A stretch of 64,000 nt of DNA from positions 80,228,001-80,292,000 of the forward strand of contig NC_091474.1 of NCBI RefSeq assembly GCF_036971445.1. The letters run 5' to 3'. This document shows positions 331-64,000 of the stretch, in pieces; the stretch's first letter is position 1, and each line of letters opens with the position of its first letter. The stretch is from Narcine bancroftii. Lineage: Eukaryota. The notes under the pieces are model-generated. The model worked only from the letters and a program-made list of their open reading frames with translations. It ran no database searches and was not told the DNA's origin. Made by a program: the position numbers and the translations under genes.

Positions 331-425
331 TTTTTCATGATTTGAATCTCTTGACACCACCTCTTTTTGCTTCTTGCACTCAACTCCAAACGGCAGGCTT
401 TAACTGCAATCCTTTCTCCAGTGTT
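331..425 (-). CDS. CHUK: IKK-alpha (CHUK) second coding exon, kinase N-lobe
   Basis: 95-bp exon bounded by a ttccag acceptor and a gtgagt donor on the minus strand. It translates to [31 protein letters not shown](K), matching IKK-alpha (human [28 protein letters not shown]). The catalytic Lys falls at residue 44. The gene continues off the left edge. Confidence 0.95.
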
Positions 426-1594
426 CTGGAACAGAAGTGTGGATTTATTGGGTTATAACGTACAATATTAAAAGTTCATTAGTTAAAATCGCTGACTAAA
501 ATACTGATGGATCACAAATCTCAAATAAGGTAGCTGTGTTCAGTTTACTTAGTGCACATGAAATCTGACTTGCAAACCATTCTATCGGATGGCGGATAAA
601 CTTCTGATTAAATTGCAAATGATGAAGAATATTCAGTACACTGCAGAGTTGGCATCCTTAAAGATGGCTACCAAATCCAATCACTTTATTGATAAACATC
701 CTCAATCACAGCAGAAATAAGAACCCCCTTCTATGTGTTGAACACATTGTAGAAATGCATGAACCATACCAGTGCCATTCAAATACAACGAAACAAATTT
801 CAAGTTGCACTTGTGACTTTTTTTTAACCATTGTTTTTTTTACCCCGATGTCTTTTTGAGAAGATTCCAAGATATCAAAAAAACCCCAAAAATCTGGGTT
901 TTTGTGTGAATTCAAGGTCTTGATCATAATGTTGATGATTAAGGGCATGAGTGCCTGTAACAGGCTGGAGAATGGTAATGATAAAAGAGAATGAGGGATG
1001 CAGATTAGGCCACAAGTAGAGAAATCAAATGACTTAGAAAAGTCCAAGGAAGAGAGAATTTATAGATTATGGGAAGGCCACAGCATACAAGGATTTGAAT
1101 AGGAGAAATCAAGTTTTAAAACAGGATCTTTCAAAGATTTGAAGTCAACACAAGTTAATAAGAACAAATGGCAGGTGATGGGGACTTAGAAAAGATTAAA
1201 AAAAAAGCAGAATTTAGAGATGTGAAAAAGTTAATTGGTGGCCAGTAACCTTTGGTGCCGCTCAGTTTAACAGTGATAATGCAAACTGAGTTTTGGCAGC
1301 ATTCCACGAGTACTGCGTGTGAACAAAAGTCTTCATGGCCAGGCACCATCTATTATTCATCTATCATTCACAAACAACATGGAATCAGGAGAAATCCTCA
1401 CTTATTTTTCTTGACATTGGTAAATACCGGAGCACACAGGTTGTGGAGAAAATCTATGACCTGGCATCATCCAAGACTCGTGTTAATATTATATCAATTC
1501 TTCGAGCTAAGGAAAATTAGTTACAATTTTGGTTCAATCATGAAGAAAACTGCCTGGGAATATTATGCCCACGAAGGGAAAGATCAAAATAATT

Positions 1595-1965
1595 AAACTA
1601 AGGTACTGGACACTCTCCAATCAGAAGGCATTAACATCGACTTCTCCAGCTCCCTTAAACTCCTTCCCCGCCTACCCGTTTCCTTTTGTCAAGTCCAACT
1701 CACTCCCTCCCTCTCCATTCTGAGACCAATAACTCCCCATCATTTCTCAGTGTTTTTCTCTTTTACCCTGTCGTCTCTGACCTCTTGCCTATTAGCCTGT
1801 GCTCCCCCCACCCTTCCTCCCTCCTGACCTCCCCCCACCCCAATTTTATTCAGGCACTTGCCTGCTTTTTGCTCATGAAGGTATCAGGCCTGAAACTTTG
1901 GTTATATCCCATTGATGCTGCGAGACCTGCGGAGTTTTTGCAGTATCTTTGTTTATTGCAAACTA
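1595..1965 (+). mobile_element. Penelope-like element 3' remnant
   Basis: Translates to a TLQSEGINIDFS-like C-terminus, followed by a pyrimidine-rich tract and a degenerate gctcatgaagg...cctgaaac motif shared with other copies in the window. Confidence 0.55.
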
Positions 1966-2571
1966 ATTATCACTCATTCATCTAACTCTCAATTACACGG
2001 TGTCAAGTGGCACCAAATTCCCAATCATCAAAAACTTAAGAGTAGATGGTTTCCCCTTGACATCAAGACACCAAATGTAAAATTGAAGTCATGGGAATCA
2101 AACAGAAAAATAGTGTCATTCTTTGTTCACAGAAGATCAACACCTCCCATTCAGAAAATCCCTATTATTCCCAAACCTGGGGCATCTAATTTTTCCCTTC
2201 ACCGAAATAACTTCCAATTATCCTTGCTTTGCAACTACTCAGAACAGCTGATAACTGGAAGAATCGAATCACAACATTCAAATAATTACAAATGTTCCTG
2301 ACATGAAGATATTAGTTTGAAGAAGAAACAACACAAAATGGAATGATAAAAATGCAGGGAATTTTAAACTTTTCTCATGTCAAACATGTAAAGTCGAACA
2401 AAATAATGGGTGATAGGAAATTAGTCCCTTTAAATTGTTCATCACCAAAGAAATAGCAAGAATGAAATTTCTGTCATTCTTTTAAATCTTTCAGTCTTGT
2501 GTGTTTTGTTTCATCTTTACAGCCCTAAAATGCACAACAAATGTCAATCTCCATCAATGCATAAAATTTAC

Positions 2572-2676
2572 CTTATGTTCGTACATATAGACATGTCCAA
2601 AGCCTCCTGCTCCAAGACGTTCCTTTAGATCCCAGGGTCCACATGTCTGAACCTGCTTGAATGGGGGTTTCTCCAT
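2572..2676 (-). CDS. CHUK: IKK-alpha (CHUK) first coding exon
   Basis: ATG at 2676-2674 and 105 coding nt giving MEKPPFKQVQTCGPWDLKERLGAGGFGHVYMYEHK (Gly-rich loop). Donor AAG|gtaaat. An acceptor ttacag lies 21 nt upstream of the ATG, so the exon spans 2572-2697. It joins 331-425 in phase 0. Confidence 0.95.
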
Positions 2677-3699: not shown

Positions 3700-6600
3700 G
3701 GGACCGCACGCGGCAGGGACCGAGGGGGGGGGCGGGACCGCACGCGGCAGGGACCGTGGGGGGGGGCGGGACCGCACGCGGCAGGGACCGTGGGGGGGGC
3801 GGGACCGCACACAGCAGGGACCGTGGGGGGACGGGACCGCACGTGGCTGGGACCGTGGGGGTCAGGACCGCACGCGGCAGGGACCGTGGGGGGCAGGACC
3901 GCACGCGGCAGGGACCGTGGGGGGCAGGACCGCACGCGGCAGGGACCGTGGGGGGCAGGACCGCACGCGGCAGGGACCGTGGGGGGCAGGACCGCACGCG
4001 GCAGGGACCGTGGGGGGCAGGACCGCACGCGGCAGGGACCGTGGGGGGCAGGACCGCACGCGGCAGGGACCGTGGGGGGCAGGACCGCACGCGGCAGGGA
4101 CCGTGGGGGGCAGGACCGCACGCGGCAGGGACCGTGGGGGGCAGGACCGCACGCGGCAGGGACCGTGGGGGGCAGGACCGCACGCGGCAGGGACCGTGGG
4201 GGGCAGGACCGCACGCGGCAGGGACCGTGGGGGGGCAGGACCGCACGCGGCAGGGACCGTGGGGGGCAGGACCGCACGCGGCAGGGACCGTGGGGGGCAG
4301 GACCGCACGCGGCAGGGACCGTGGGGGGCAGGACCGCACGCGGCAGGGACCGTGGGGGGCAGGACCGCACGCGGCAGGGACCGTGGGGGGCAGGACCGCA
4401 CGCGGCAGGGACCGTGGGGGGCAGGACCGCACGCGGCAGGGACCGTGGGGCGGGGGGCGTGACTGCACGCGGCAGGGAACGTGGGGGGGGGGCGGGACTG
4501 TACGCGGCAGGGTCCGTGGGGGGGGGGTGGGATCGCACGTGGCAGGGACCTTGGGGTGGGCGGGATCGCACGCGGCAGGGACCGTGAGGGGGCGGGATCG
4601 CACGCGGCAGGGACCATGGGGGGGCTGGACCGCACGCTGCTGGGACCGTAGGGGGGCTGGACCGCACGCGGCTGGGACCGTGGGGGGCAGGACCGCAAGC
4701 GGCAGGGACCGTGGGGATTGGGCGGGACCGTACGCGGCTGGGACCGTGGGGTGGGGGGGAGACCCCTGCAGCAGGGACAGTGGGGGGGAGAATACCCCCG
4801 TGGCAGGGACCGTTGGGGGGCAGGACCGCACGCGGCAGGGACCGTGGGGGGCAGGACCGCACGCGGCAGGGACCGTGGGGGGCAGGACCGCACGCGGCAG
4901 GGACCGTGGGTGCAGGACCGCACGCGGCAGGGACCGTGGGTGCAGGACCGCACGCGGCAGGGACCGTGGGGGGCAGGACCGCACGCGGCAGGGACCGTGG
5001 GGGGGGGGGGGGGGGGCGTGACTGCACGCGGCAGGGAACGTGGGGGGGGGCGGGACTGTACGCGGCAGGGTCCGTGGGGGGGGTGGGATCGCACGCGGCA
5101 GGGACCGTGGGGGGCAGGACCGCACGCGGCAGGGACCGTGGGGGGCAGGACCGCACGCGGCAGGGACCGTGGGTGCAGGACCGCACGCGGCAGGGACCGT
5201 GGGGATTGGGCGGGACCGTACGCGGCTGGGACCGTGGGGTGGGGGGGAGACCCCTGCAGCAGGGACAGTGGGGGGGAGAATACCCCTGTGGCAGGGACCG
5301 TTGGGGGGCGGGACCGCACGCGGCAGAGACCGTGGGGAGGGGGGGGTGTGACTGCACACGGCAGGGACCGTGGGGGTGCGGGACCGCACGCGGCAGGGAC
5401 CGTGGGGGTGCGGGACCGCACGCGGCAGGGACCGTGGGGGTGCGGGACCGCACGCGGCAGGGACCGTGGGGGTGCGGGACCGCACGCGGCAGGGACCGTG
5501 GGGGTGCGGGACCGCACGCGGCAGGGACCGTGGGGGTGCGGGACCGCACGCGGCAGGGACCGTGGGGGTGCGGGACCGCACGCGGCAGGGACCGTGGGGG
5601 TGCGGGACCGCACGCGGCAGGGACCGTGGGGGTGCGGGACCGCACGCGGCAGGGACCGTGGGGGTGCGGGACCGCACGCGGCAGGGACCGTGGGGGTGCG
5701 GGACCGCACGCGGCAGGGACCGTGGGGGTGCGGGACCGCACGCGGCAGGGACCGTGGGGGTGCGGGACCGCACGCGGCAGGGACCGTGGGGGTGCGGGAC
5801 CGCACGCGGCAGGGACCGTGGGGGTGCGGGACCGCACGCGGCAGGGACCGTGGGGGTGCGGGACCGCACGCGGCAGGGACCGTGGGGGTGCGGGACCGCA
5901 CGCGGCAGGGACCGTGGGGGTGCGGGACCGCACGCGGCAGGGACCGTGGGGGTGCGGGACCGCACGCGGCAGGGACCGTGGGGGTGCGGGACCGCACGCG
6001 GCAGGGACCGTGGGGGTGCGGGACCGCACGCGGCAGGGACCGTGGGGGGGTGCCTGACCCCACGCAGCAGGGACCGTGGAGGGGGGCCTGACCCCACGCG
6101 GCAGTGGGGGTGCGGGACCGCACGCGGCAGGGACCGTGGGGGTGCGGGACCGCACGCGGCAGGGACCGTGGGGGTGCGGGACCGCACGCGGCAGGGACCG
6201 TGGGGGGGGGGGCGGTACCGCACGCGGCAGGGACCGTGGGGGGGGGGCGGGACCCCACGCGGCAGGGACCGTGGGGGGGGGGCGGGACCCCACGCGGCAG
6301 GGACCGTGGGGGGGTGCCTGACCCCACGCAGCAGGGACCGTGGAGGGGGGCCTGACCCCACGCGGCAGTGGGGGGTGCGGGACCCCACGCGGCAGGGACC
6401 GTTGGGGGCGGGGCCGCACGCGGGAGGGACAGCGGGGGGCGGGGCCGCAAGGGGGAGGGACAGTAAGGGGCGGGGCCTTGCGCGGGAGGGACAGTGGGGG
6501 GCGTGGCCGCGCACGGGAGGGACAGTGGGGGGCGGGGCCTTGCGCGGGAGGGACAGTGGGGGGCGGAGCCTTGCGCGGGAGGGACAGTGGGGGCGGGGCC

Positions 6601-6720
6601 TTGCGCGGGAGGGACAGTGGGGGGCGGGGCCTTGCGCGGGAGGGACAATGGGGGCGGGGCCGCGCGCTGGAGGGACGGGGGCGGGGCCGCAAGCGGGACG
6701 GACAGTGGGGGGCGGGACTG
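3700..6720. repeat. G-rich/CpG-rich minisatellite (31- and 32-bp units) in the CHUK leader intron
   Basis: Homogeneous blocks of GGACCGCACGCGGCAGGGACCGTGGGGGGCA (31 bp, ~3860-4445) and GGACCGCACGCGGCAGGGACCGTGGGGGTGCG (32 bp, ~5365-6045), with degenerate blocks between and GC-box-bearing variants at ~6410-6720. Confidence 0.97.
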
Positions 6721-6958
6721 GAAGCTGGCGGGACGGGGCGGGGAAGGGGGAAATGGAGAGGGGGTGGAGAGCTGGAGAAAAGACAGGGGTCGAGGAAGGA
6801 CGAGAGGATGAACTCGCGGAGACCGGAGAAGTCGATGCTTGGGCCCGTCAGGCTGCGCTCGGGCCTCTCCTGCTCCGCCGCAGGCTCATCTCATTTGCCA
6901 CCCGTTCTCCCCCCCCCCCCACCCTCCACCCTCTCTCTCTCTCTCTCACTCTCCTTAC

Positions 6959-12675: not shown

Positions 12676-15600
12676 GGGAGGAGTCACGTGATGGAGTAGT
12701 GGCCGGTCGGGTAAAACCAGCCCTCTCCAGAAAAAAAGAAAAAAAGTCAAGAAAAGACAAAGTTCAACAAATATAAAATATAAGAAATAAAAGGTAAAGT
12801 TGCAGAGAAGAGAAAGAAGATGGCACCCAAGAAGGAAAAAGTAAAAACAACAGGAAAAAAAAGTTACCGGAAAAGAAAGAAGAAGGCCTTACCTGCACAA
12901 GGGAACAGGGAGCTGTGGTGGCGAAGAATGCCTGTTCTCCGAGGTTGGTGTCGGCCCTGCGGAGTCGCGACCCCCCCCCCCCACCGGTAGACTGCAAAAA
13001 TGGCTCTCTGAGCCAAACAGGAGTCGCGCACGAACAGTGCGCAATCTAAGTTAAAAGAAAACACCGATGGGAGGGGGGCTCAGCCGAGGAGCGGGCGACC
13101 AGCTGAGGGACGACCGACACCAGGGCGTTAAAAAAAGTTTGGAAGAGAATAACCATCACTGTGAAATCAGTTGACGCTTGCAAACAGGATTGGAATCCAA
13201 ATGGAAAGGGGAGTTGTGGTTGCCTTGCAAGGGTTAAAGGGCCAAATTTATGGTTAAATCAATGCAGGAAATGGAAATTTGGGAATCATATATGGATATA
13301 TGGAGGAGGCAGCACCCAAGAGAGAAGGAATATACATATTATTTGAGTAGGCATAAAACATACTCAAGGATTGATATGTTTTTGTTGTCAGCCCATATTC
13401 AAGGGAGAGTTAGGAAAACTGAGTATAAAGCTAGACCACTATCAGATCATTCACCCCTGTTATTAGCAATAGAACTGGAGGACATCCCACCAAGAACATA
13501 TAGATGGAGGTTAAACTCCATGCTACTTAAAAGGCAGGAATTTAGAGAGTTTATTGAATGCCAAATTTTGAAATAAACACAGAATCAGTGAAAGACAAAT
13601 TTATATTATGGGATGCAATGAAAGCCTTCATTAGAGGGCAGATAATAAGTTATGTAAATAAGATGAAAAAGGACTACAATCGGGAAATAAAGCAGTTGGA
13701 AAGGGAGATAGTAAGTACAGAAAAGGGATGATATAACAAAAAGGAGAGAATTGGTGAACAAAAAAATAAAATACGAAACATTACAAATGTACAAAGTGGA
13801 GAAGAACATAATGAAAATAAAGCAAAAGTATTATGAACTGGGAGAAAAAGCACATAAAATATTAGACTGGTAACTTAAAACAGAACAAGCTAAAAAACAC
13901 TGTATTAGCATCAAGGAAAAAGGACAAAAAAATTACATATAACTCAATAGAGATTAATGAGAACTTTAAGGATTTTTATGAATAATTATACCAGAATAGA
14001 AGAATTTTTAGCTAAAATTGAACTACCTAAATTGCAAGAAGAGGAACAAAACAAACTAATAAAACCATTTGAAATAGAGGAAGTACAGGATATATTAAAA
14101 AAGCTGCCAAACAATAAAATGCCAGGAGAGGATGGATTCCCAATAGAATTCTATAAAACATTTAAAGAGTTATTAATTCCTCCTCTCCTGGAGGTAATGA
14201 ACCTGATAGAAGAAACACAAAACTTGTCAGATTCATGTAAGACAGCAATAATAAGACAGCAGTAAAACAAGATCAAACTGGATTTATTAATAAAAGATGA
14301 ACAGCGGACAATGTCTGTAAACTTATTAATTTAATTCATGCAGTTCAAGAAAATAAGATGCCAACAGTGGCTATAGCTTTAGACACAGAAGATGCCTTTG
14401 ACAGAGTAGAATGGAACTATTTATTTAAAGTATTACAGAGGTTCAATCTACCAGAAAAATACATTAATTGGATTAAAGCATTATATAATGGACTATTGGC
14501 GAAGGTAACAGTAAATGGATATGTATCGAGTCACTTTAAATTAAGTAGGCCAACTAGACAGGGATGTCCACTATCCCCCTCATTGTTCGCCTTAGCAATA
14601 GAACCATTAGCAGAACTGATAAGAACAGAAAATAAAATAAAAGGGATAAAAATAAAGGAGCAGGAGTATAAAATCATCTTATTTGCAGATGACATCATAG
14701 TATACCATACAGAACCAGAGAAATATCGGGGTACAAGATCAACGCAAATAAAAGTGAAGTGATGCCAATGAGTAACGCGGATTATACAGAATTTAAAAAA
14801 GAATCGCCATTTAAATGGCAAACACAAGCAATCCGATACCTAGGTATTAGGTTAGATAATAACTTAAGCAACCTGTACAAACTAAATTATCAGCCACTAA
14901 TAAAGAAATTGCAGGAAGACTTAGAACATTGGAAAGAATTACTGCTAACGTTGATAGGGAGGGTAAATTGCATTAAAATAAATGTCTTCCCAAGGATACA
15001 ATACTTATTTCAATAGTTGCCAATTCCCTTAACAGAGAAATTCTTTAATGAACTAAAGAGAATAATAAGGAAATTCTTGTGGAAAGGGGGGAAACCGAGG
15101 GTAGCGTTAGATAAATATAACCAAGGTGGTTTGCAGTTACCAAACTTTAAAAATTATTATAGAGCCGCACAATTAAGGTATTTATCAGATTTTTACCAGA
15201 CAAGGGAAAAACCAGACTGGACTAAGATAGAACTAGATAAAATAGAGGAGAAGGTACCGGAACATATACTTTATAAGTGGGATGAAAAGATGGTGCAATA
15301 TAAAAGCTCACCAGTATTGCATAATTTACTTAATATATGGAAGAAGATCCACTTAGAAAGGAAAAAAAATGAATTAACAAATACCAAAATTGTTATTGAC
15401 ACAAAACCCACTAATCACTTTTACAATAGATAATGTTTCCTTTAGAGAATGGGAGAGAAAAGGAATCAAAAGAATAGAAAATTGTTTTTTAGGAAATAAT
15501 TTATTAACATTTGAACAGTTGAAGTACAAATATGGAATAACTCATGGTACAATGTTTGCATATCATCAACTGAAAGCTTATTTAAAGGATAAATTGGGAA

Positions 15601-16609
15601 ACAAATTGAGATTACCAGAAGGAAGTAGCTTTGAATATGTGATTACAGACAGAATGATAATTAAAAGATTTATAATGAACATGCACATTAAGCTGAAGAT
15701 AAGGAAAATGATGAAATAAGCTATAAACCTAAACAAAAGTGGGTAAAGTATTTAAACATAAAGATAAAAAATGAAGCATGGGAAAAGTTATGTTCTGGAA
15801 CTATGGAGAATACAATAAACACAAGGTTACACATGATACAGTATAATTGGTTACACAGATTATATATCATGCCTCAAAAGTTAAAAGAATGGGATCCAAC
15901 ATTATCAGATAGATGTTTTTGCTGTAAGAAAGAAATGGGAACAACATTACATACAATTTGGGCATGTACAAAAGTGAAAATGTTTTGGGAAGATCTAAAT
16001 CAGATATTAAATAAAATCACAAAAAATAACACCAAAAAATCCAGAGATCTTTCTTCTAAGTAACATAAGAAGTAAGGAATTAGGCCTCAAATTGGATAAA
16101 GCGCAAAAAAGATTTATTATGATAGCCTTAGCAGTAGCAAAGAAATGTATAATGTCAACTTGGAAAATGGAAGAGAGACTGAGAATACAACAATGGTACA
16201 TGGAAATGAATAAATGTATTCCATTGGAAAAAATAACATATAATTTAAAAAATAAAGTCACATTATGAACAAATTTGGGAATCATACATGGAGCATAACA
16301 GAGAGAGCTTGCCTCAGACCTCCACCCATAAAATGATAAGAAGACAAAATGACTTGATCCAGTGTGTATAAGTAGATGACACATTTTTCTTGTTTATTTT
16401 TCATTGTGTGAAGACATTGTTTAATGGTTTTATTGTGTTGTATATGTTGAATATTTATTGGTTTTGGAGTGGGTGGGAAGGGGGGAGGGAGGGTAGGCAG
16501 AAAAAAAAGGGAGAAAATGCCACTGTGTATATTTAATGAGAAACGTTTGTATATATTTTGGTTGATATGGTTCACAGTGTGAAAAATAAAAAAATTATTT
16601 GAAAAAAAT
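12676..16609 (+). mobile_element. L1-clade LINE with both ends present, internally deleted, ORF2 pseudogenised
   Basis: 13-bp TSD AAGTGGTTGAGTG (12663-12675 and 16610-16622). The 5' end matches the L1 at 62434. Frameshifted fragments of the endonuclease (YSRIDMFLLS, LSDHSPL), RT (RQGCPLSPSLF, LFADDII) and C-terminal Cys/His region (CFCC...LHTIWAC) are present, with an A-rich tail. Most of ORF1 and the endonuclease N-terminus are missing near 13130-13200. Confidence 0.93.
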
Positions 16610-17355: not shown

Positions 17356-18627
17356 CCCTAAATAAAAACTAATCCTATTGGCTGTGATAGCAATGAAAAG
17401 TGGAAAAAATGGGAAGATGAGAAAGGCAGAGCATGGATGAGAACAGGGTGATTACCTGTGAAAGGCTGCATGCGAGAACTGTATTAGTGACTATCAGAGT
17501 TACGTTGAATACTATCCAGAAATATGCTGACAATGACCAATGAATGAAGCTTAAGACAAAGGTTAGGACGGTGGTGATAGGAAGCATTAAAGCAACTCGA
17601 GACTGCTCATGGTGGTCCTTGCAGATGAAACGGATGCTTTATAAAGTGGTTACTGCCACATCCTGAATATTGAATGTAGTACGTTAAATTGGAAGAAATA
17701 TAAGTGAATTGCTGCTTCAACTGGAAGGATAGTTTGGCTCCATGAATGGTTTCAAGATGAAAGGTAAAATGGCATGTACTGACTGGGAAAGTGCCCTGAA
17801 ATGTTGAGTGGTAATGGAATTTGGTCTGGAAGTCGTGAAAGAATCAATCCTTTCAGATGCATCCGGTGATGGGATCGCATTGATGGGCGCGAAAATTAAA
17901 TAGGATGTTCGACGAAATGTAACAGCCTGGTGGTATGGAAGTTAAGGTCAAGAAGAAACACTTGTTTGAAGGAAGCCACATTTAATGGGGGGTAAAAAAA
18001 AAAACATCTTGAGGGTGCTAATGTGGAAGGGTTCAACATAAGGTATGATAGAGTATGACAAACAGAATGGTCTGGAATATTTGCAAGGCAGGAGGAAGGG
18101 TATTTAAAACAGTTATTGGAAGCTAACCTGTCACGGAGATGGCAAGTGAAGGGAATGGACCCTATGAAAATTTGAATAGGGTGGAATTTTGTAATAAAAG
18201 TAAATTTAAATTTAAAGGTAACAGGTCCTTTCAGCCCATGAGCCTTTGCTGCCCCAATTACACCAATTGACCGACAACCCCCTATACATTTTGAACTTTG
18301 TCGCAAAACTTTTGATTTCTATTTGTGTAGGAGCGGCTCTATAATTAATGTAATTGGAGAGATGTTGAGGGAAAGATGATGATATGACTGAAATTGGGAC
18401 AGTTCCAAATATTCACTCTACAGGCACAGGTTTGGCCATAGAAGTTCCTATAACTATATCTTTTGTAAACAGAGAGGAAAGCTGCTGGGGATCAGACTGG
18501 CTGCTTTTTGGCAAAGCATACTGGGTATAGATCAATCTATACAGAGAAAATAATTTCCTAAAATCTGGTTCATACAGATCTGCTCTCAATACTGTAAGAA
18601 CTTGGGGGAAGAAAAGTAATCCCAGAG

Positions 18628-18865
18628 GGTGGCAAAGTTAGCGAAGCACAATGCTGTTACAGCACCAGTGGCCAGTGTTCAAAACTGGGGCTATCTGTAA
18701 GGACTTTGTTCGTTCTCTCCATGTCTGCATAGGTGTCTTCCAGGTGCTCTGGTTTCCTCCCTCCCTTGAAAACATACCGGGGTTGTAAGTCAGTTGGATG
18801 TAATTAGGCGGTACGGGTTTATGGGCTGAAAGGCCCTTTTAGCGTACTGTATATCAAATATTTAA
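18628..18865 (+). mobile_element. HE1/V-SINE-like SINE
   Basis: Degenerate tRNA-like head, central gttctctccatgtctgc...ggtttcctccc domain and AT-rich tail. Confidence 0.7.
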
Positions 18866-19432
18866 AATCTGTGCATGGTCAGATTCAGGGGCCTTTTGGC
18901 AGGTTGTATCTGATGTTTCACAAGAGCAAGAGATATCTGAATTGATGTTTATAAATTATCAATCTCTGTTTAAGGATGTTTTGTGTAGATTTTATCAAGT
19001 TCTCAGTAAATGGTATGTGTGCCTTTCTGGATCCATTTTCCCTGAGATTTTCAATGTCCAGAAGAACACATTAATGAAACAGGAAGTTCCATCCTGATTT
19101 AGCAGTTGCTTCAGATTTAGGATTGTCTCATCAAATTTCAACTGGAAGGTAATGAGAAGGGTAAGATCATACATCCAGGTTCATTCAATCACTGCATCAT
19201 TCAACGACTTCAATAACATTAGTTTTCTCCACCATTCTTTGTTATTATTCCATGGATATGGCCAACTGAAGGGTTTTCTGAAATCCCTTGTGTCTTCCAA
19301 GAGGGTATTGCCCAGTCATGGGATTCTTTGAAATATAAACAAAGTATTGGAGTACAAAGAAGAATTATTACGAAGGATAGGTGTCTTTTGAAAAATATCT
19401 CAGTAATCAGACAAAGATTCATGGATCCTGCC

Positions 19433-19597
19433 TCATATTGTTCCCTCCAACAGGATGTTGGTAACACGCTTCATCCTCCAGATCACTAGAGCAGCAGTTG
19501 GCAGCACCATCATGCAGCTCATTATTAATATGGTTGCCAGGATCACCAGGACAATGGTCCAGACTTCCAAGACGTATGTTGGAATCATTTGCTCCAT
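19433..19597 (-). CDS. SMIM3/NID67-family small integral membrane protein (54 aa)
   Basis: MEQMIPTYVLEVWTIVLVILATILIMSCMMVLPTAALVIWRMKRVTNILLEGTI* aligns almost gap-free with recalled human SMIM3 ([48 protein letters not shown]). Kozak context is aagATGG, and an acceptor ttttgtattttccag lies 37 nt upstream of the ATG (exon starts at 19634). The symbol is left blank because orthology versus paralogy is unresolved. Confidence 0.88.
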   Translation of the reverse strand: MEQMIPTYVLEVWTIVLVILATILIMSCMMVLPTAALVIWRMKRVTNILLEGTI

Positions 19598-19939
19598 CTT
19601 TCCCTTCACTGGGACAATGCTATGTTAGTAACACCTGGAAAATACAAAATAGATTTAGATGAAGGAAATAATTTGATCCATCATGGTAGAATATTATTGT
19701 TGTTTAGCCAACTATTCCTGGATTAAATAATCATTTTTATTTAATAAATTTAATTAATAGTTAACTGATTTGTCTATTTTGTTCATTAAACATTTCCAAT
19801 TTACTCAAATACAACATTTTTGGATATGCATTGAGCTACATTTGTTTATTTTTTATTTGAATTTAAAAAAAATTTGATTCAGGCAAATTCCAATAATTAA
19901 TCAATGAAAATCTATTAAATTTGTTTTGACAAGTTAAAC

Positions 19940-38510: not shown

Positions 38511-39129
38511 TGTAGTCATATAAAGTTGAAATAAAACAGTGTATGGGAGGAATGGGGAAAATGCTGTATTGGTGAGATCTATCACCAAATCAAATATCTC
38601 CACTTTACCAATGCTTCACTAATTGTTAACCGCAGAATTACTTTACAGTACACACTCTTGACTGAAAAACTTATTTGTAGTTAATTGTCTTACATGGTTC
38701 CTTTCTTCTTGTGGTTGAAACATTAATTCATTTACACCTTTGCTGGCAAGGCTGACATTTCTTGTGATGGGAAGGTGTGGTGGACATCTTCACTAGAATG
38801 TGGCAGAGGTGTTTCCACAGCGTCGCATTAACAACCATGGCCTTACTTCTGAGACATGACTTGTGACTTGGAGAGAGACCAACCGGAATGGAACGCAGTT
38901 CCCATTCACCTGTTCCCTTTGTCCTTCCAGGTGGAACAGGTCATGGATTTAGAAGCTGCCATTGAAAAATTTCTTGTTTTTCAGAGGGAAATTTCAAATA
39001 TATTGAGGTTAAAGGGTAAAAGTTCAGCCTTGAATGGTGCAACAGGTGGCAGGGGCTCCATGGTCTCCTTCTGCTTCTGTTATAGAAGAGATGATTTTCC
39101 AAGTTTCTCAATGGCTATGATAGGCAGAG

Positions 39130-43020: not shown

Positions 43021-44657
43021 CTTTGACTTGGCTTCGCGGACGAAGATTTATGGAGGGGTATGTCTGCTGCAGGCTCGTTGGTGACTGACAAGTCCAATGC
43101 GGGACAGGCAGGCACGGTTGCAGCGATTGCAATGGAAAATTGGTGGGTTGGGGTTGGGTGTTTCCTCCTTTGTCTTTTGTCAGTGAGGTGGGCTCTGCGG
43201 TCTTCTTCAAAGGAGGTTGCTGCCCGCCGAAGTGAGGCACCAAGATGCACGGTTGGAGGCGAGATCAGCCCACTGGCGGTGGTCAATGGGGCAGGCACCA
43301 AGAGATTTCTTTAAGCAGTCCTTGTACCTCTTCTTTGGTGTACCTCTGTCTCAGTGGCCAGTGGAGAGCTCGCCATAGAACATGATCTTGGGAAGGCAAT
43401 GGTCCTCCCTTCTGGAGACGTGACACACCCAGCACAGTTGGGTCTTCAGCAGCATGGATTCGATGCTGTCGGACTCTGCCAGCTCGAGTACTTCGATATT
43501 GGTGATGAAGTCATTCCAATGAATGTTGAGGATGGAGCGGAGACAGCGCTGATGGAAGAGTTCTAGGAGCTGTAGGTGATGCCGGTAGAGGACCCATGAT
43601 TCGGAGCCGAACAGGAGCGTGGGTATGACAACGGCTCTGTACACGCTGATCTTTGTGTGTTTCTTCAGCCTGAAGACTACCTGGATGCATCCCCGATCCA
43701 AACACTGGCATCTCCTGGACTACGTTCTGGTGCGAGGAAGAGACAAACGAGATGTACTCCACACCAGGGTCATGCCCAGCGCGGAATGCCACACTGACCA
43801 CCGGCTTGTTCGCTGCAAGCTCAACCTTCACTTCAAGCCAAAGTTCAAGAACAGTGGAGCCCCTAGAAAGAGGTTCAATGTTGGAAACTTACAGTCAGAC
43901 ATAGTGAGAGGAAACTTCCAGGCAAACCTCCAAGCAAAGCTCGACGATGCAAACTGCCTCACGGACACGTCTCCTGAAACCCTCTGGGATCAGCTGAAAA
44001 TGGCCATACTGCAATCCACTGAAGAGGTACTGGGCTTCTCCTCCAGGAAAAACAAGGACTGGTTTGACGAAAACAACCAGGAAATCCAGGATCTGCTGGC
44101 AAAGAAGCGATCTGCCCACCAGGCTCACCTTGCAAAGCCTTCCTGGCCAGAGAGAAAACGAGCCTTCTGTCTCGCATGCAGCCACCTTCAGCGCAAACTC
44201 TGGGAGATCCAAAATGAGTGGTGGACTAGCCTCGCCAAGCGAACCCAGCTCAGCGCGGACATTGGCGACTTTAGGGGTTTCTACGAGGCTCTAAAGGCGG
44301 TGTACGGCCCCTCACCCCAAGTCCAAAGCCCTCTGCGCAGCTCAGACGGCAAAGTCCTCCTCAGCGACAAGATCTCCATCCTCAATCGATGGTCAGAACA
44401 CTTCCAATCCCTTTTCAGTGCCAACCACTCAGTCCAAGAATCCGCCCTGCTCCAGCTCCCTCAACAACCCTTGAGGCTAGAGCTGGATGAGGTCCTTACC
44501 CAGGAAGAGACATATAAGGCAATTGAACAACTGAAAAGTGGCAAAGCAGCAGGTATGGATGGAATCCACCCCCCAGAGGTCTGGAAGGCTGGCGGCAAAG
44601 CTCTGCGTACCAAACAGCATGAGTTTTTCATGCTCTGCTGGGACCAAGGAAAGCTGC
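43021..44657. mobile_element. RTE (BovB-like) LINE with 5' inversion
   Basis: 43021-~43668 is the RTE 3' end on the minus strand (KISVYRAVVIPTLLFGSESW, zinc knuckle). ~43670-44657 is an open endonuclease-end/linker frame on the plus strand (TTWMHPRSKHWHLLDYVLVR...TDHRLV...KSGKAAGMDGI). Confidence 0.9.
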
Positions 44658-45544
44658 AAGAGGACGAGCTGCAACTTAACTCTTCTCCTTCCACAAGATT
44701 TGTGCTTGAACCTTCAAACTCTCCAGTCCCCAGCTCTGGCATTCCATCCTGCGATCTCCACCTTTATCTTCCCTTTCAAACTAATCTTTAACCAAGCTTT
44801 CGGTTGCTTCCTGTAATAGTTTCTGCTGAGATGTATATCTGCCGTTGTGAATAGGTTGTATTGTGAATAATGGAATCAATGTTTCTGGGAGTCCACTGAA
44901 CTAGTGACCTATCATGGGCACACAACATCTCCTTACTTGTCAGGAAGGCACAACAGTGACTGCACTTCCTGAGAAGACTGAAATGAGAAAGGCTAGCAGG
45001 CACCTTCATGTCAACCTTCTGAAGGAGCTCGATTGAGACCGTCCTGGATAGCTGCATCACAGTGTGGTGTCGAGAATTGGGGTCAATCCACAGGACCACA
45101 AGAAAGGGCAGAGAGGATCACTGGGGTCTCTCTCCCCCCCCCCCCTCATCAATGTGATCTACTGGGTTCGTTGTCTGAAGAGGACACACAAAATCATTTG
45201 AGCACGCCTTACACAAATGAGACAATTTTAGTTTAAACGTATATGCTCTATGGACCACTTTAAATTGCAGGAGACAATGTTGTGCACAAGAGATGTAGTG
45301 TTAATCAGTTTAAAAATAGAATTCCAAACCTCATTGGACAGTTAAAGGTTCAAATCCTGCTTCCAGGCGTTCTTGATTTTATTTAACAGGGCCTGTCTTA
45401 AATCAGTCAATTTGTCATAAATAAGACATGTTAAGCCTTTATAGGGAGGTTGTGTTTCAAAAAAATGAATCAAGAATATTCACCTTGGGAGTCCCTGGAA
45501 AATCAGAAATCTGAAATTGAACAAAATATCTAATTTATAACTAT

Positions 45545-60790: not shown

Positions 60791-61625
60791 GAGGGTGGTG
60801 AGGCTCGCGGAGGGTGGTGAGGCTCGCGGAGGGTGGTGAGGCTCGCGGAGGGTGGTGAGGCTCGCGGAGGGTGGTGAGGCTCGCGGAGGGTGGTGAGGCT
60901 CGCGGAGGGTGGTGAGGCTCGCGGAGGGTGGTGAGGCTCGCGGAGGGTGGTGAGGCTCGCGGAGGGTGGTGAGGCTCGCGGAGGGTGGTGAGGCTCGCGG
61001 AGGGTGGTGAGGCTCGCGGAGGGTGGTGAGGCTCGCGGAGGGTGGTGAGGCTCGCGGAGGGTGGTGAGGCTCGCGGAGGGTGGTGAGGCTCGCGGAGGGT
61101 GGTGAGGCTCGCGGAGGGTGGTGAGGCTCGCGGAGGGTGGTGAGGCTCGCGGAGGGTGGTGAGGCTCGCGGAGGGTGGTGAGGCTCGCGGAGGGTGGTGA
61201 GGCTCGCGGAGGGTGGTGAGGCTCGCGGAGGGTGGTGAGGCTCGCGGAGGGTGGTGAGGCTCGCGGAGGGTGGTGAGGCTCGCGGAGGGTGGTGAGGCTC
61301 GCGGAGGGTGGTGAGGCTCGCGGAGGGTGGTGAGGCTCGCGGAGGGTGGTGAGGCTCGCGGAGGGTGGTGAGGCTCGCGGAGGGTGGTGAGGCTCGCGGA
61401 GGGTGGTGAGGCTCGCGGAGGGTGGTGAGGCTCGCGGAGGGTGGTGAGGCTCGCGGAGGGTGGTGAGGCTCGCGGAGGGTGGTGAGGCTCGCGGAGGGTG
61501 GTGAGGCTCGCGGAGGGTGGTGAGGCTCGCGGAGGGTGGTGAGGCTCGCGGAGGGTGGTGAGGCTCGCGGAGGGTGGTGAGGCTCGCGGAGGGTGGTGAG
61601 GCTCGCGGAGGGTGGTGAGGCTCGC
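60791..61625. repeat. Perfect 19-bp minisatellite (GAGGGTGGTGAGGCTCGCG)n, ~44 copies, inside a CR1 3' fragment (~60740-61855)
   Basis: Exact period of 19. The flanks gtagatttaggac and gcccaatgaagcactggaggtgacttcagtaaat match the CR1 copy at ~56713-56960. Confidence 0.97.
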
Positions 61626-62433: not shown

Positions 62434-64000
62434 GGAGGAGTCACGTGATGGAGTAGTGGCCGGACGGTGAACTCCAGCCCTCTCCAGAAAAGTCGGGAAA
62501 AACAAGAGAAAACACAAAGGCACAGAAATAAAAGTTACAGAAAAGTGAGTATAAAGGTGGAAAGAAGATGGCGACAAAAAAAGAAAAGTCGAAAGCAACG
62601 GTAAGAAGAGAGGAAGAGAAGACAAAGGAGGAAAAAGGTGAAGGCCTTACCTGTCCGAAGAGGCCCGCTGCGGAGAGAGAAACCCGCTCCCTCAGGTCGG
62701 TAAATAATGGACTACAAAAATGGCTCGCAGAGCCGAACAAAAGTGCGCAACCGCGCATGCGCGAAGTTTCGCGCATGCGCGATGCGAATGAAAAAAAACA
62801 CACCGACGGGAGGGGGGACCAGCTGGGGAGTCGATCTCCACAGCCGGCAACGACAGCTGCAGAACACCTGCAGCAAGAAGAGACCACAGAAGACAATAGA
62901 AACAAGATAGAAGAGGAGGAAAGGGCAACAAAGAAACAACAGATGGTCAACCCAGAGGAAGAAGAAGAGGAAGAGTATGGTGAAATAGAAGAAGAAAAGA
63001 GAGGCAAGGTAAAGGATATACTTGCTCTTATTAGAGGATACATGGAATCATTTAAAGAATGGCAAACACAGGAATTTAAGGATTTAAGAAAAAGAATAAA
63101 CAACACAGAGGAGAAAATAATTAAAATGGAGATGACCTTAACAGAAATGGGAAAAAAAATGGACAAGATGGAAGAGCGGGCAGTAGCAGCAGAAATGGAG
63201 GTAGAAGACTTAAAAAAGAAATTGGAGAAATCTAATAAAAAAACTAAAGAGACACAAGAACTACTAGCTCAAAAAATAGATACAATGGAAAACCATAACA
63301 GAAGAAATAACATAAAGATAGTGGGCCTTAAGGAAGATGAAGAAGGCAAGAATATGAGGGAGTTTATAAAAGAGTGGATCCCTAAGACCCTAGGATGTCC
63401 AGAACTACAGCATGAAATGGAAATAGAAAGGGCACATAGAGTATTGGCCTCTAAACCACAACCACAACAAAAACCAAGATCTATTGTAGTAAAATTCCTA
63501 AGATATACTACAAGAGAAAAGGTACTGGAGAAGACAATGGAAAAAGTAAGAGAGGGCAACAAACCACTGGAGTATAAAGGGCAAAAAATCTTCATTTATC
63601 CAGATATAAGTTTTGAACTCCTAAAGAAGAGAAAAGAGTTCAATACAGCAAAGGCGATTTTATGGAAGAAAGGGTATAAATTTATACTAAAGCATCCAGC
63701 GGTATTGAAAATATTTATTCCAGGACAGCAAAACAGACTATTCTCGGATCCAGAAGAAGCACGAAAATTTGCAGAACAATTACAAAAATAGACTGAGGGA
63801 GGAAGACGGGTAATGAGAGTTAAAATGATCACGACTGATATGTATGTGGGTAAAGACAAAAATAGACTGAGGGATGAAGACGGGTAATGAGAGTAAAAAT
63901 GATCACGATTGATATGTATGCAGGTAAAGAGGTATAAGAGTGAATAGAGACAATGAGCATACATGAATGTATCTGTACTTAGAGGAAAATATAGATAGTA
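62434..64000 (+). mobile_element. Young L1-clade LINE, 5' part (runs off the window)
   Basis: The 5' end ggaggagtcacgtgatggagtagtggccgg is identical to the start of the 12676 element, and ORF1 is intact. Confidence 0.92.
62568..63791 (+). CDS. L1 ORF1 protein (coiled coil, RRM, CTD)
   Basis: Uninterrupted 407-aa ORF with ENHNRRNNIKIVGLKE, IERAHR, PRSIVVKF and IFIYPDIS...KRKEF motifs. Confidence 0.92.
   Translation: MATKKEKSKATVRREEEKTKEEKGEGLTCPKRPAAERETRSLRSVNNGLQKWLAEPNKSAQPRMREVSRMRDANEKKHTDGRGDQLGSRSPQPATTAAEHLQQEETTEDNRNKIEEEERATKKQQMVNPEEEEEEEYGEIEEEKRGKVKDILALIRGYMESFKEWQTQEFKDLRKRINNTEEKIIKMEMTLTEMGKKMDKMEERAVAAEMEVEDLKKKLEKSNKKTKETQELLAQKIDTMENHNRRNNIKIVGLKEDEEGKNMREFIKEWIPKTLGCPELQHEMEIERAHRVLASKPQPQQKPRSIVVKFLRYTTREKVLEKTMEKVREGNKPLEYKGQKIFIYPDISFELLKKRKEFNTAKAILWKKGYKFILKHPAVLKIFIPGQQNRLFSDPEEARKFAEQLQK

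Follow-up and report, generated by a model that had tools for sequence, protein, structure and literature searches.

The coding exon of a membrane microprotein beside CHUK

The window analyzed here, a stretch of 64,000 nucleotides of the Narcine bancroftii genome (contig C15:80228001-80292000), contains on its minus strand, at 19433-19597, the gene of a 54-amino-acid (aa) membrane microprotein, which we call SMIM3B. It lies 16.8 kb upstream of CHUK. The features at the locus are the following.

19433..19597, minus strand: SMIM3B coding sequence, 54 aa plus TGA in a single coding exon (ORF translation, Pfam, clade placement)
19598..19634, minus strand: 5′ untranslated part of the coding exon, 37 nt, no upstream ATG (sequence)
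19635..19652, minus strand: splice acceptor, pyrimidine tract plus CAG (sequence, and the match of X1 record 8 ending here)
19478..19561, minus strand: hydrophobic segment, residues 13-40, predicted transmembrane helix kinked at Pro33 (hydropathy, conservation)
19436..19477, minus strand: basic stop-transfer RMKR and clade-specific tail I-x-L-x-G-x-[VIL]-COOH (comparison of 41 clade-B proteins)
17850..19432, minus strand: likely long 3′ UTR (X1 contigs, one run, depth about 5)
333..2676, minus strand: first two coding exons of CHUK, 2676-2572 and about 425-333, the remainder lying left of the window (exon matches)

An earlier note on this DNA had described an intact ORF with a good Kozak context, a splice acceptor of its own at 19634, and a long hydrophobic segment followed by RMKR, and all of these were found. 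The ORF at 19597..19433 encodes a protein identical to the peptide quoted there and starts in the context aagATGG, with A at -3 and G at +4, while an in-frame TAA is located 30 nt 5′ of the ATG. The exon is opened at 19634 by the acceptor ...tttgtattttccag|, with pyrimidines at 12 of 15 nt, which is one of only four such acceptors on the minus strand between 17850 and 19950. Residues 13-40 form a run of 28 hydrophobic residues, none of them charged, with Pro33 inside, and RMKR follows directly. With a value of 2.82 for its best 19-residue segment, the ORF ranks first in hydropathy among the window's 196 ATG-initiated ORFs of 40-80 aa; judged by hydropathy only, the protein has one long hydrophobic segment with basic residues after it. 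The proposed SMIM3-family membership was confirmed by Pfam, in which Smim3 (PF17307; curated cut-off 25 bits) matched the 54-aa protein with 47.3 bits (E 1.5e-12). The surrounding DNA, 18872-19933, showed no repeat match among the DNA compared, and a 57-aa plus-strand ORF overlapping SMIM3B had no Pfam match.

Transcript evidence came from the contigs of run X1. Letters 91-427 of record 8, a 427-nt contig, are equal to window 19635-19299 with 0 differences, while its first 90 nt map elsewhere than the adjoining genome sequence, and the X1 depth is zero from 19696 on. Given that a DNA contig would continue into the intron, we read this record as a probable spliced mRNA; a contig break would fall so close (1 nt or less) to a strong acceptor in this stretch with a chance of about 0.6%. 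This supports a SMIM3B transcript spliced at the predicted acceptor, in one of three runs of one study, at a depth of 5.3 and with the label ‘RNA? (a guess)’. In this stretch, runs X2 and X3 cover nothing but repeats, and none of the listed sequence sets is recorded as RNA; they speak neither for nor against expression. The expected junction into 19634 is thus seen as one contig whose match ends at the acceptor, but in a single run of guessed RNA status. Downstream of the stop codon, X1 contigs cover 19299-19432, 18253-18585 and 17850-17947, with unbridged gaps, and the latter two hint at a long 3′ UTR.

CHUK had been named as the neighbour, and this assignment holds. Further CHUK exons are located at C15:80.19-80.21 Mb on the same strand as SMIM3B, and two of them favour IKK-alpha over IKK-beta (65.6 vs 56 bits and 61.3 vs 49.6 bits); the short first coding exon alone scored higher with IKK-beta, and the other IKK gene is on contig C5. 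A likely non-coding first exon of CHUK, predicted from sequence, lies at 7000-6958 (minus strand, donor AAG|GTAAGG at 6958) and holds an 8-codon upstream ORF at 7000-6974 (minus strand). Between this likely leader and the first coding exon is a GC-rich 3-kb tandem array (3700-6718, 32-nt unit, about 95 copies), which yields spurious ORFs of about 1000 aa.

About 85 kb to the right of SMIM3B, the plus strand has exons that match Sec7 and PH_9, which we take to be a PSD/EFA6-type gene. An exon-like 28-codon stretch at 38931-39014 (plus strand), bearing an acceptor and a donor, is located in non-repeated DNA and lacks a Pfam match; it could be an early exon of this gene or of another one. A provirus-like element (L027:7890 to L028:2400, minus strand; C15 about 80.410-80.414 Mb) with an integrase core match and gag/pol/env-like pieces is located in an intron of the PSD-type gene. 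The CWF19L family was rejected as the right-hand neighbour, with matches only on C16 (169.8 Mb) and C27 (28.4 Mb) and none on C15; in human, CWF19L1 adjoins CHUK, and the local gene order differs.

A Pfam scan of 17 stretches of the window returned a reverse transcriptase (RT) match only. The LINE-like remnants are a broken RT element (RVT_1) at 13200-16100 and a second RT-like fragment at 43300-44800, both on the plus strand, and a LINE-like, ORF1-like open frame of 419 codons with no Pfam match is present at 62532-63791 (plus strand). A perfect 19-nt tandem array at 60791-61625 (43.9 copies, 100% matches) reflects either recent expansion or an effect of the assembly.

Canonical SMIM3 and the paralogous blocks

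When the Smim3 profile was run over the genome, two of the 26 candidates scored exceeded the cut-off: the locus at C21:3.687 Mb with 57.4 bits and the window copy with 48.3 bits. The C21 copy (C21:3687358, plus strand) encodes 51 aa, is identical to a sawfish protein at 40 of 46 residues, and falls in one group with proteins of sharks and chimaera, a further sign of a cartilaginous-fish genome. An exon of Dynactin p62 (DCTN4) lies 26 kb away from it and runs in the opposite direction; MYOZ is at a distance of about 90 kb and NDST at 0.46 Mb. A passage of PMC3504201 places Dctn4 and Ndst1 in the mouse Cd74-Nid67 interval. Given this linkage and the content of the mouse interval, the C21 copy is the canonical SMIM3 orthologue. 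The window copy is without the DCTN4/MYOZ3/NDST1 linkage, and it is the C21 copy that holds that position. The possibility raised in the earlier note, that the window might hold the only SMIM3 of this genome, is contradicted by the two loci above the Pfam cut-off, one of which is the second SMIM3 next to DCTN4.

The two copies are identical at 17 of 38 aligned residues. In the C21 paralogue, a candidate acceptor lies 38 nt before the ATG, compared with 37 nt in the window copy. The identities by codon position are 19, 33 and 17 of 37, a pattern that fits coding constraint and is confounded by hydrophobic codons. As candidates for a third or fourth paralogue, six matches below the cut-off, among the best candidates scored, were rejected. 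The best of them, on C29 (22.3-22.8 bits), is a 72-aa frame without an ATG before the hydrophobic stretch, and the match on L003 has a stop inside. The weak Smim3-like stretch on C29 (L006:1471-1689, minus strand) may be a chance match or else a very old remnant.

Three loci each were found for MYOZ and NDST, on C21, C15 and C8. On C15, NDST lies at 73.5 Mb, the window SMIM3 copy at 80.25 Mb and MYOZ at 86.3 Mb; the probability of a random landing this near to the C15 NDST and MYOZ is about 0.004 (a post hoc figure), and that of the same contig alone is 18%. PSD-family exons were found on C15, C21, C5 and C8. The presence of MYOZ, NDST and PSD paralogues on both C15 and C21 agrees with the paralogon location that had been claimed, and the C15/C21/C8/C5 arrangement matches, at block level only, the 4/5/8/10 paralogon described in a passage of PMC2453138. 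Because the paralogous markers are 6-7 Mb away, this is block synteny and not microsynteny.

A second SMIM3 clade and its origin

Word-based homologue searches with single SMIM3 proteins gave no matches, which reflects a sensitivity limit, since profile searches gave 52 and 37 matches. A profile of both Narcine copies retrieved 52 representatives that split into two groups, clade A with canonical SMIM3 and clade B with the window copy. The clade-B profile found 37 proteins among 8000 candidates scored, 23 organism-named and 14 unnamed. The named proteins belong to 17 birds, alligator, snake, Xenopus tropicalis, koala, Tasmanian devil and platypus; placental mammals, ray-finned fish and other cartilaginous fish account for 0 of these 23. 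The named ray-finned matches (Amia, Conger, Polyodon, Scleropages) were all in clade A. Only 30 proteins had their names looked up, and the mammal-like clade-A rows lie outside that set. Among the named matches, there was no invertebrate or jawless-fish homologue, and the trees are unrooted. Xenopus tropicalis carries both clades.

The split between the clades was supported at 100/99 in a 54-row tree and at 100/98 in a tree of 27 hand-picked rows, with alignments of only 51-54 columns and a long branch (0.67) for the window copy. The 54-row tree omits P0001, P0003, P0046, P0048, P0052, P0054 and P0060. P0052 (929 aa, repetitive) was discarded as noise, and the long proteins P0060, P0103 and P0107 look mis-clustered, the first by its sequence and the others by name and length, and were set aside. 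In the 27-row unrooted tree, the window copy is the first branch within clade B. An AU test rejected its grouping with cartilaginous-fish SMIM3 (p=0.018), a grouping specified once the first tree had been seen, and leave-one-out profiles scored the window protein at 72.3 bits for clade B and 54.8 bits for clade A.

The gene tree therefore places the window copy with tetrapod proteins and not with canonical SMIM3, and two proposals of the earlier note have to be given up. A paralogue retained in cartilaginous fish is at odds with orthologue-like proteins in Xenopus, snakes, alligator and many birds, and absence from mammals is at odds with those in platypus, koala and Tasmanian devil. With members in tetrapods including a monotreme and marsupials, SMIM3B is not fish-specific. 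The gene had also been called hidden; this is only partly true, as NCBI and UniRef contain its relatives under the labels ‘uncharacterized’ or ‘SMIM3-like’. These unnamed tetrapod proteins (kakapo LOC115607976, koala LOC110201596, sparrow XP_026655488, Xenopus A0A6I8RYF3, platypus A0A6I8NFJ6) form one clade with SMIM3B, at 43-61% identity and with an equal distance from Trp13 to the stop. They are 54 aa long in many birds, are known as database predictions only, and an ESM Atlas cluster of 54 aa carries the ‘SMIM3-like’ name. SMIM3B is an example of a conserved gene that is annotated unevenly because of its shortness. In a literature search outside subscription journals and supplements, we found no paper treating clade B as a distinct SMIM3 paralogue. 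The microproteins matched in the relevant passages of PMC6886504 are SMIM31/36/38/39, with no second SMIM3 clade there. Thus the SMIM3 family is already known and clade-B members are already predicted, and the clade as a distinct paralogue is unnamed in the literature searched.

SMIM3B resembles SMIM3/NID67 (PF17307) in its family score, its small size and the core W-x-I-x-L-x-I...M...P...R, and differs in belonging to a separate clade on a separate contig. W13, I15, L17, I19 and M26 are invariant across 41 clade-B and 27 clade-A sequences, and P33 and R41 are mostly kept in both clades. His8 and Tyr40, present in 27/27 clade-A proteins, are both missing from SMIM3B, which has instead Leu32, Trp40 and the I-x-L-x-G-x-[VIL] end, two residues longer than in clade A. 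In every one of the 41 clade-B proteins, the stretch from Trp13 to the C-terminus measures 42 residues and has the G-x-[VIL] end.

Since both clades occur in the Narcine genome and in Xenopus tropicalis, the duplication is older than the divergence of cartilaginous from bony fish, and it is highly probable that the window gene is an ancient paralogue of SMIM3. We hold with good confidence that it is an intact gene with a single coding exon, likely derived from an early vertebrate genome duplication and predicted to encode a one-helix membrane subunit. With rather less assurance, we favour the fuller reading that SMIM3B is a sister of SMIM3 produced by genome doubling, whose length has stayed fixed in cartilaginous fish, birds, platypus and marsupials, and which was lost in placentals and perhaps, separately, in ray-finned fish. 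What survives of the proposed absence is a negative search result, no clade-B protein of a placental mammal or a ray-finned fish having been found among the named matches. The position of the window copy between NDST and MYOZ paralogues agrees with a whole-genome-duplication origin. It argues, together with the paralogues of both the CHUK and PSD neighbours on other contigs of the quartet, against an ancient small-scale duplicate, segmental or transposed, that would likewise predate the cartilaginous/bony fish split. That origin would account for two copies being found rather than four, and for the lack of a SMIM3-neighbour paralogue directly beside the window copy, where CHUK and a PSD gene are located; nevertheless, the candidate acceptor 37/38 nt before the ATG in both copies fits DNA-level duplication, and we regard a small-scale event as improbable.

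A little less probable still is that clade B is real in tetrapods while the Narcine copy is decaying into a pseudogene. The branch is long, and the copy departs from the tetrapod clade-B consensus at Y8, T34, T46 and L49. The database sequences closest to parts of the window protein, the unnamed Logan proteins P0048 (25/33) and P0054 (22/31), each match one half with >70% identity and then leave the frame; they may represent SMIM3B pseudogenes of related fish or errors in the contigs. As these two close relatives look frameshifted, SMIM3B may be decaying in related lineages, and an intact named clade-B protein from another cartilaginous fish was not among the profile matches. The Narcine frame itself is intact, however, with its start, length and stop in register with the 54-aa bird proteins and no indels, a strong start context and a spliced X1 contig, and it keeps every position invariant in tetrapod clade B (W13, I15, L17, I19, M26, L32, L50 and G52). 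The least probable reading, largely refuted, is that the window copy is canonical SMIM3 translocated, or a duplicate of it specific to the lineage. The clade-A-like residues P6, E11, L20 and T22 would point there, but the canonical gene is present beside DCTN4, the AU test rejects a grouping with cartilaginous-fish SMIM3, the profile scores prefer clade B, and the window copy has the clade-B length and tail.

Under the favoured reading of an ancient SMIM3 sister, the SMIM3 family, which is poorly understood, comprises two branches of ancient origin. If the placental loss is true, SMIM3B would be one more microprotein among the genes lost at that transition, and a candidate membrane-regulatory function would have been dropped at the origin of placentals.

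Predicted membrane topology and possible role

SMIM3B does not represent a new type of system. The human SMIM3 gene at 5q33.1 encodes a single-pass protein of 60 aa, for which a passage of PMC9783723 suggests an unproven role in channel regulation and draws a likeness to minK, the Na,K-ATPase gamma subunit and phospholamban. By the same analogy, SMIM3B shares its size and one-helix design with KCNE/minK, FXYD and phospholamban; none of these is among its Pfam matches, and the analogy is hypothetical even for SMIM3.

The protein is predicted to have no signal peptide, and its flanks carry net charges of -2 on the N-terminal and +2 on the C-terminal side, which predicts a reverse signal-anchor with a cytosolic C-terminus; the acidic N-flank would then lie outside and the RMKR side in the cytosol. 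The 28-residue helix would span the membrane with a kink at Pro33. On it, the conserved positions 15/19/26/33 share one face and 13/17/24 the opposite face. Two invariant faces exceed the needs of bilayer contact, so the helix likely packs both against partner helices. A fixed hydrophobic C-terminal end is a candidate export or PDZ-type signal, and the constant G-x-[VIL] terminus might be read by a sorting or scaffold protein. Tentatively, and by analogy, we suggest that SMIM3B could be an accessory subunit whose helix tunes the activity of a larger channel, pump or transporter.

The main rival to this mechanism, with the same identity of the gene, is that the protein forms a small self-assembled oligomer or a Pro-broken hairpin that shapes membranes. 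The conserved stripe with 3-4 spacing at 15, 19, 22, 26, 29 and 33 would suit it, as would the 28 hydrophobic residues, more than one bilayer span, and a language-model look-alike to the coronavirus E protein (0.86), which is a lead only. We consider it unlikely, since the second conserved face and the fixed-length tail suggest a specific partner, and the segment is without charged residues. Comparing the two branches isolates W13, I15, L17, I19, M26 and, mostly, P33 and R41 as mutagenesis targets in the search for the SMIM3 partner.
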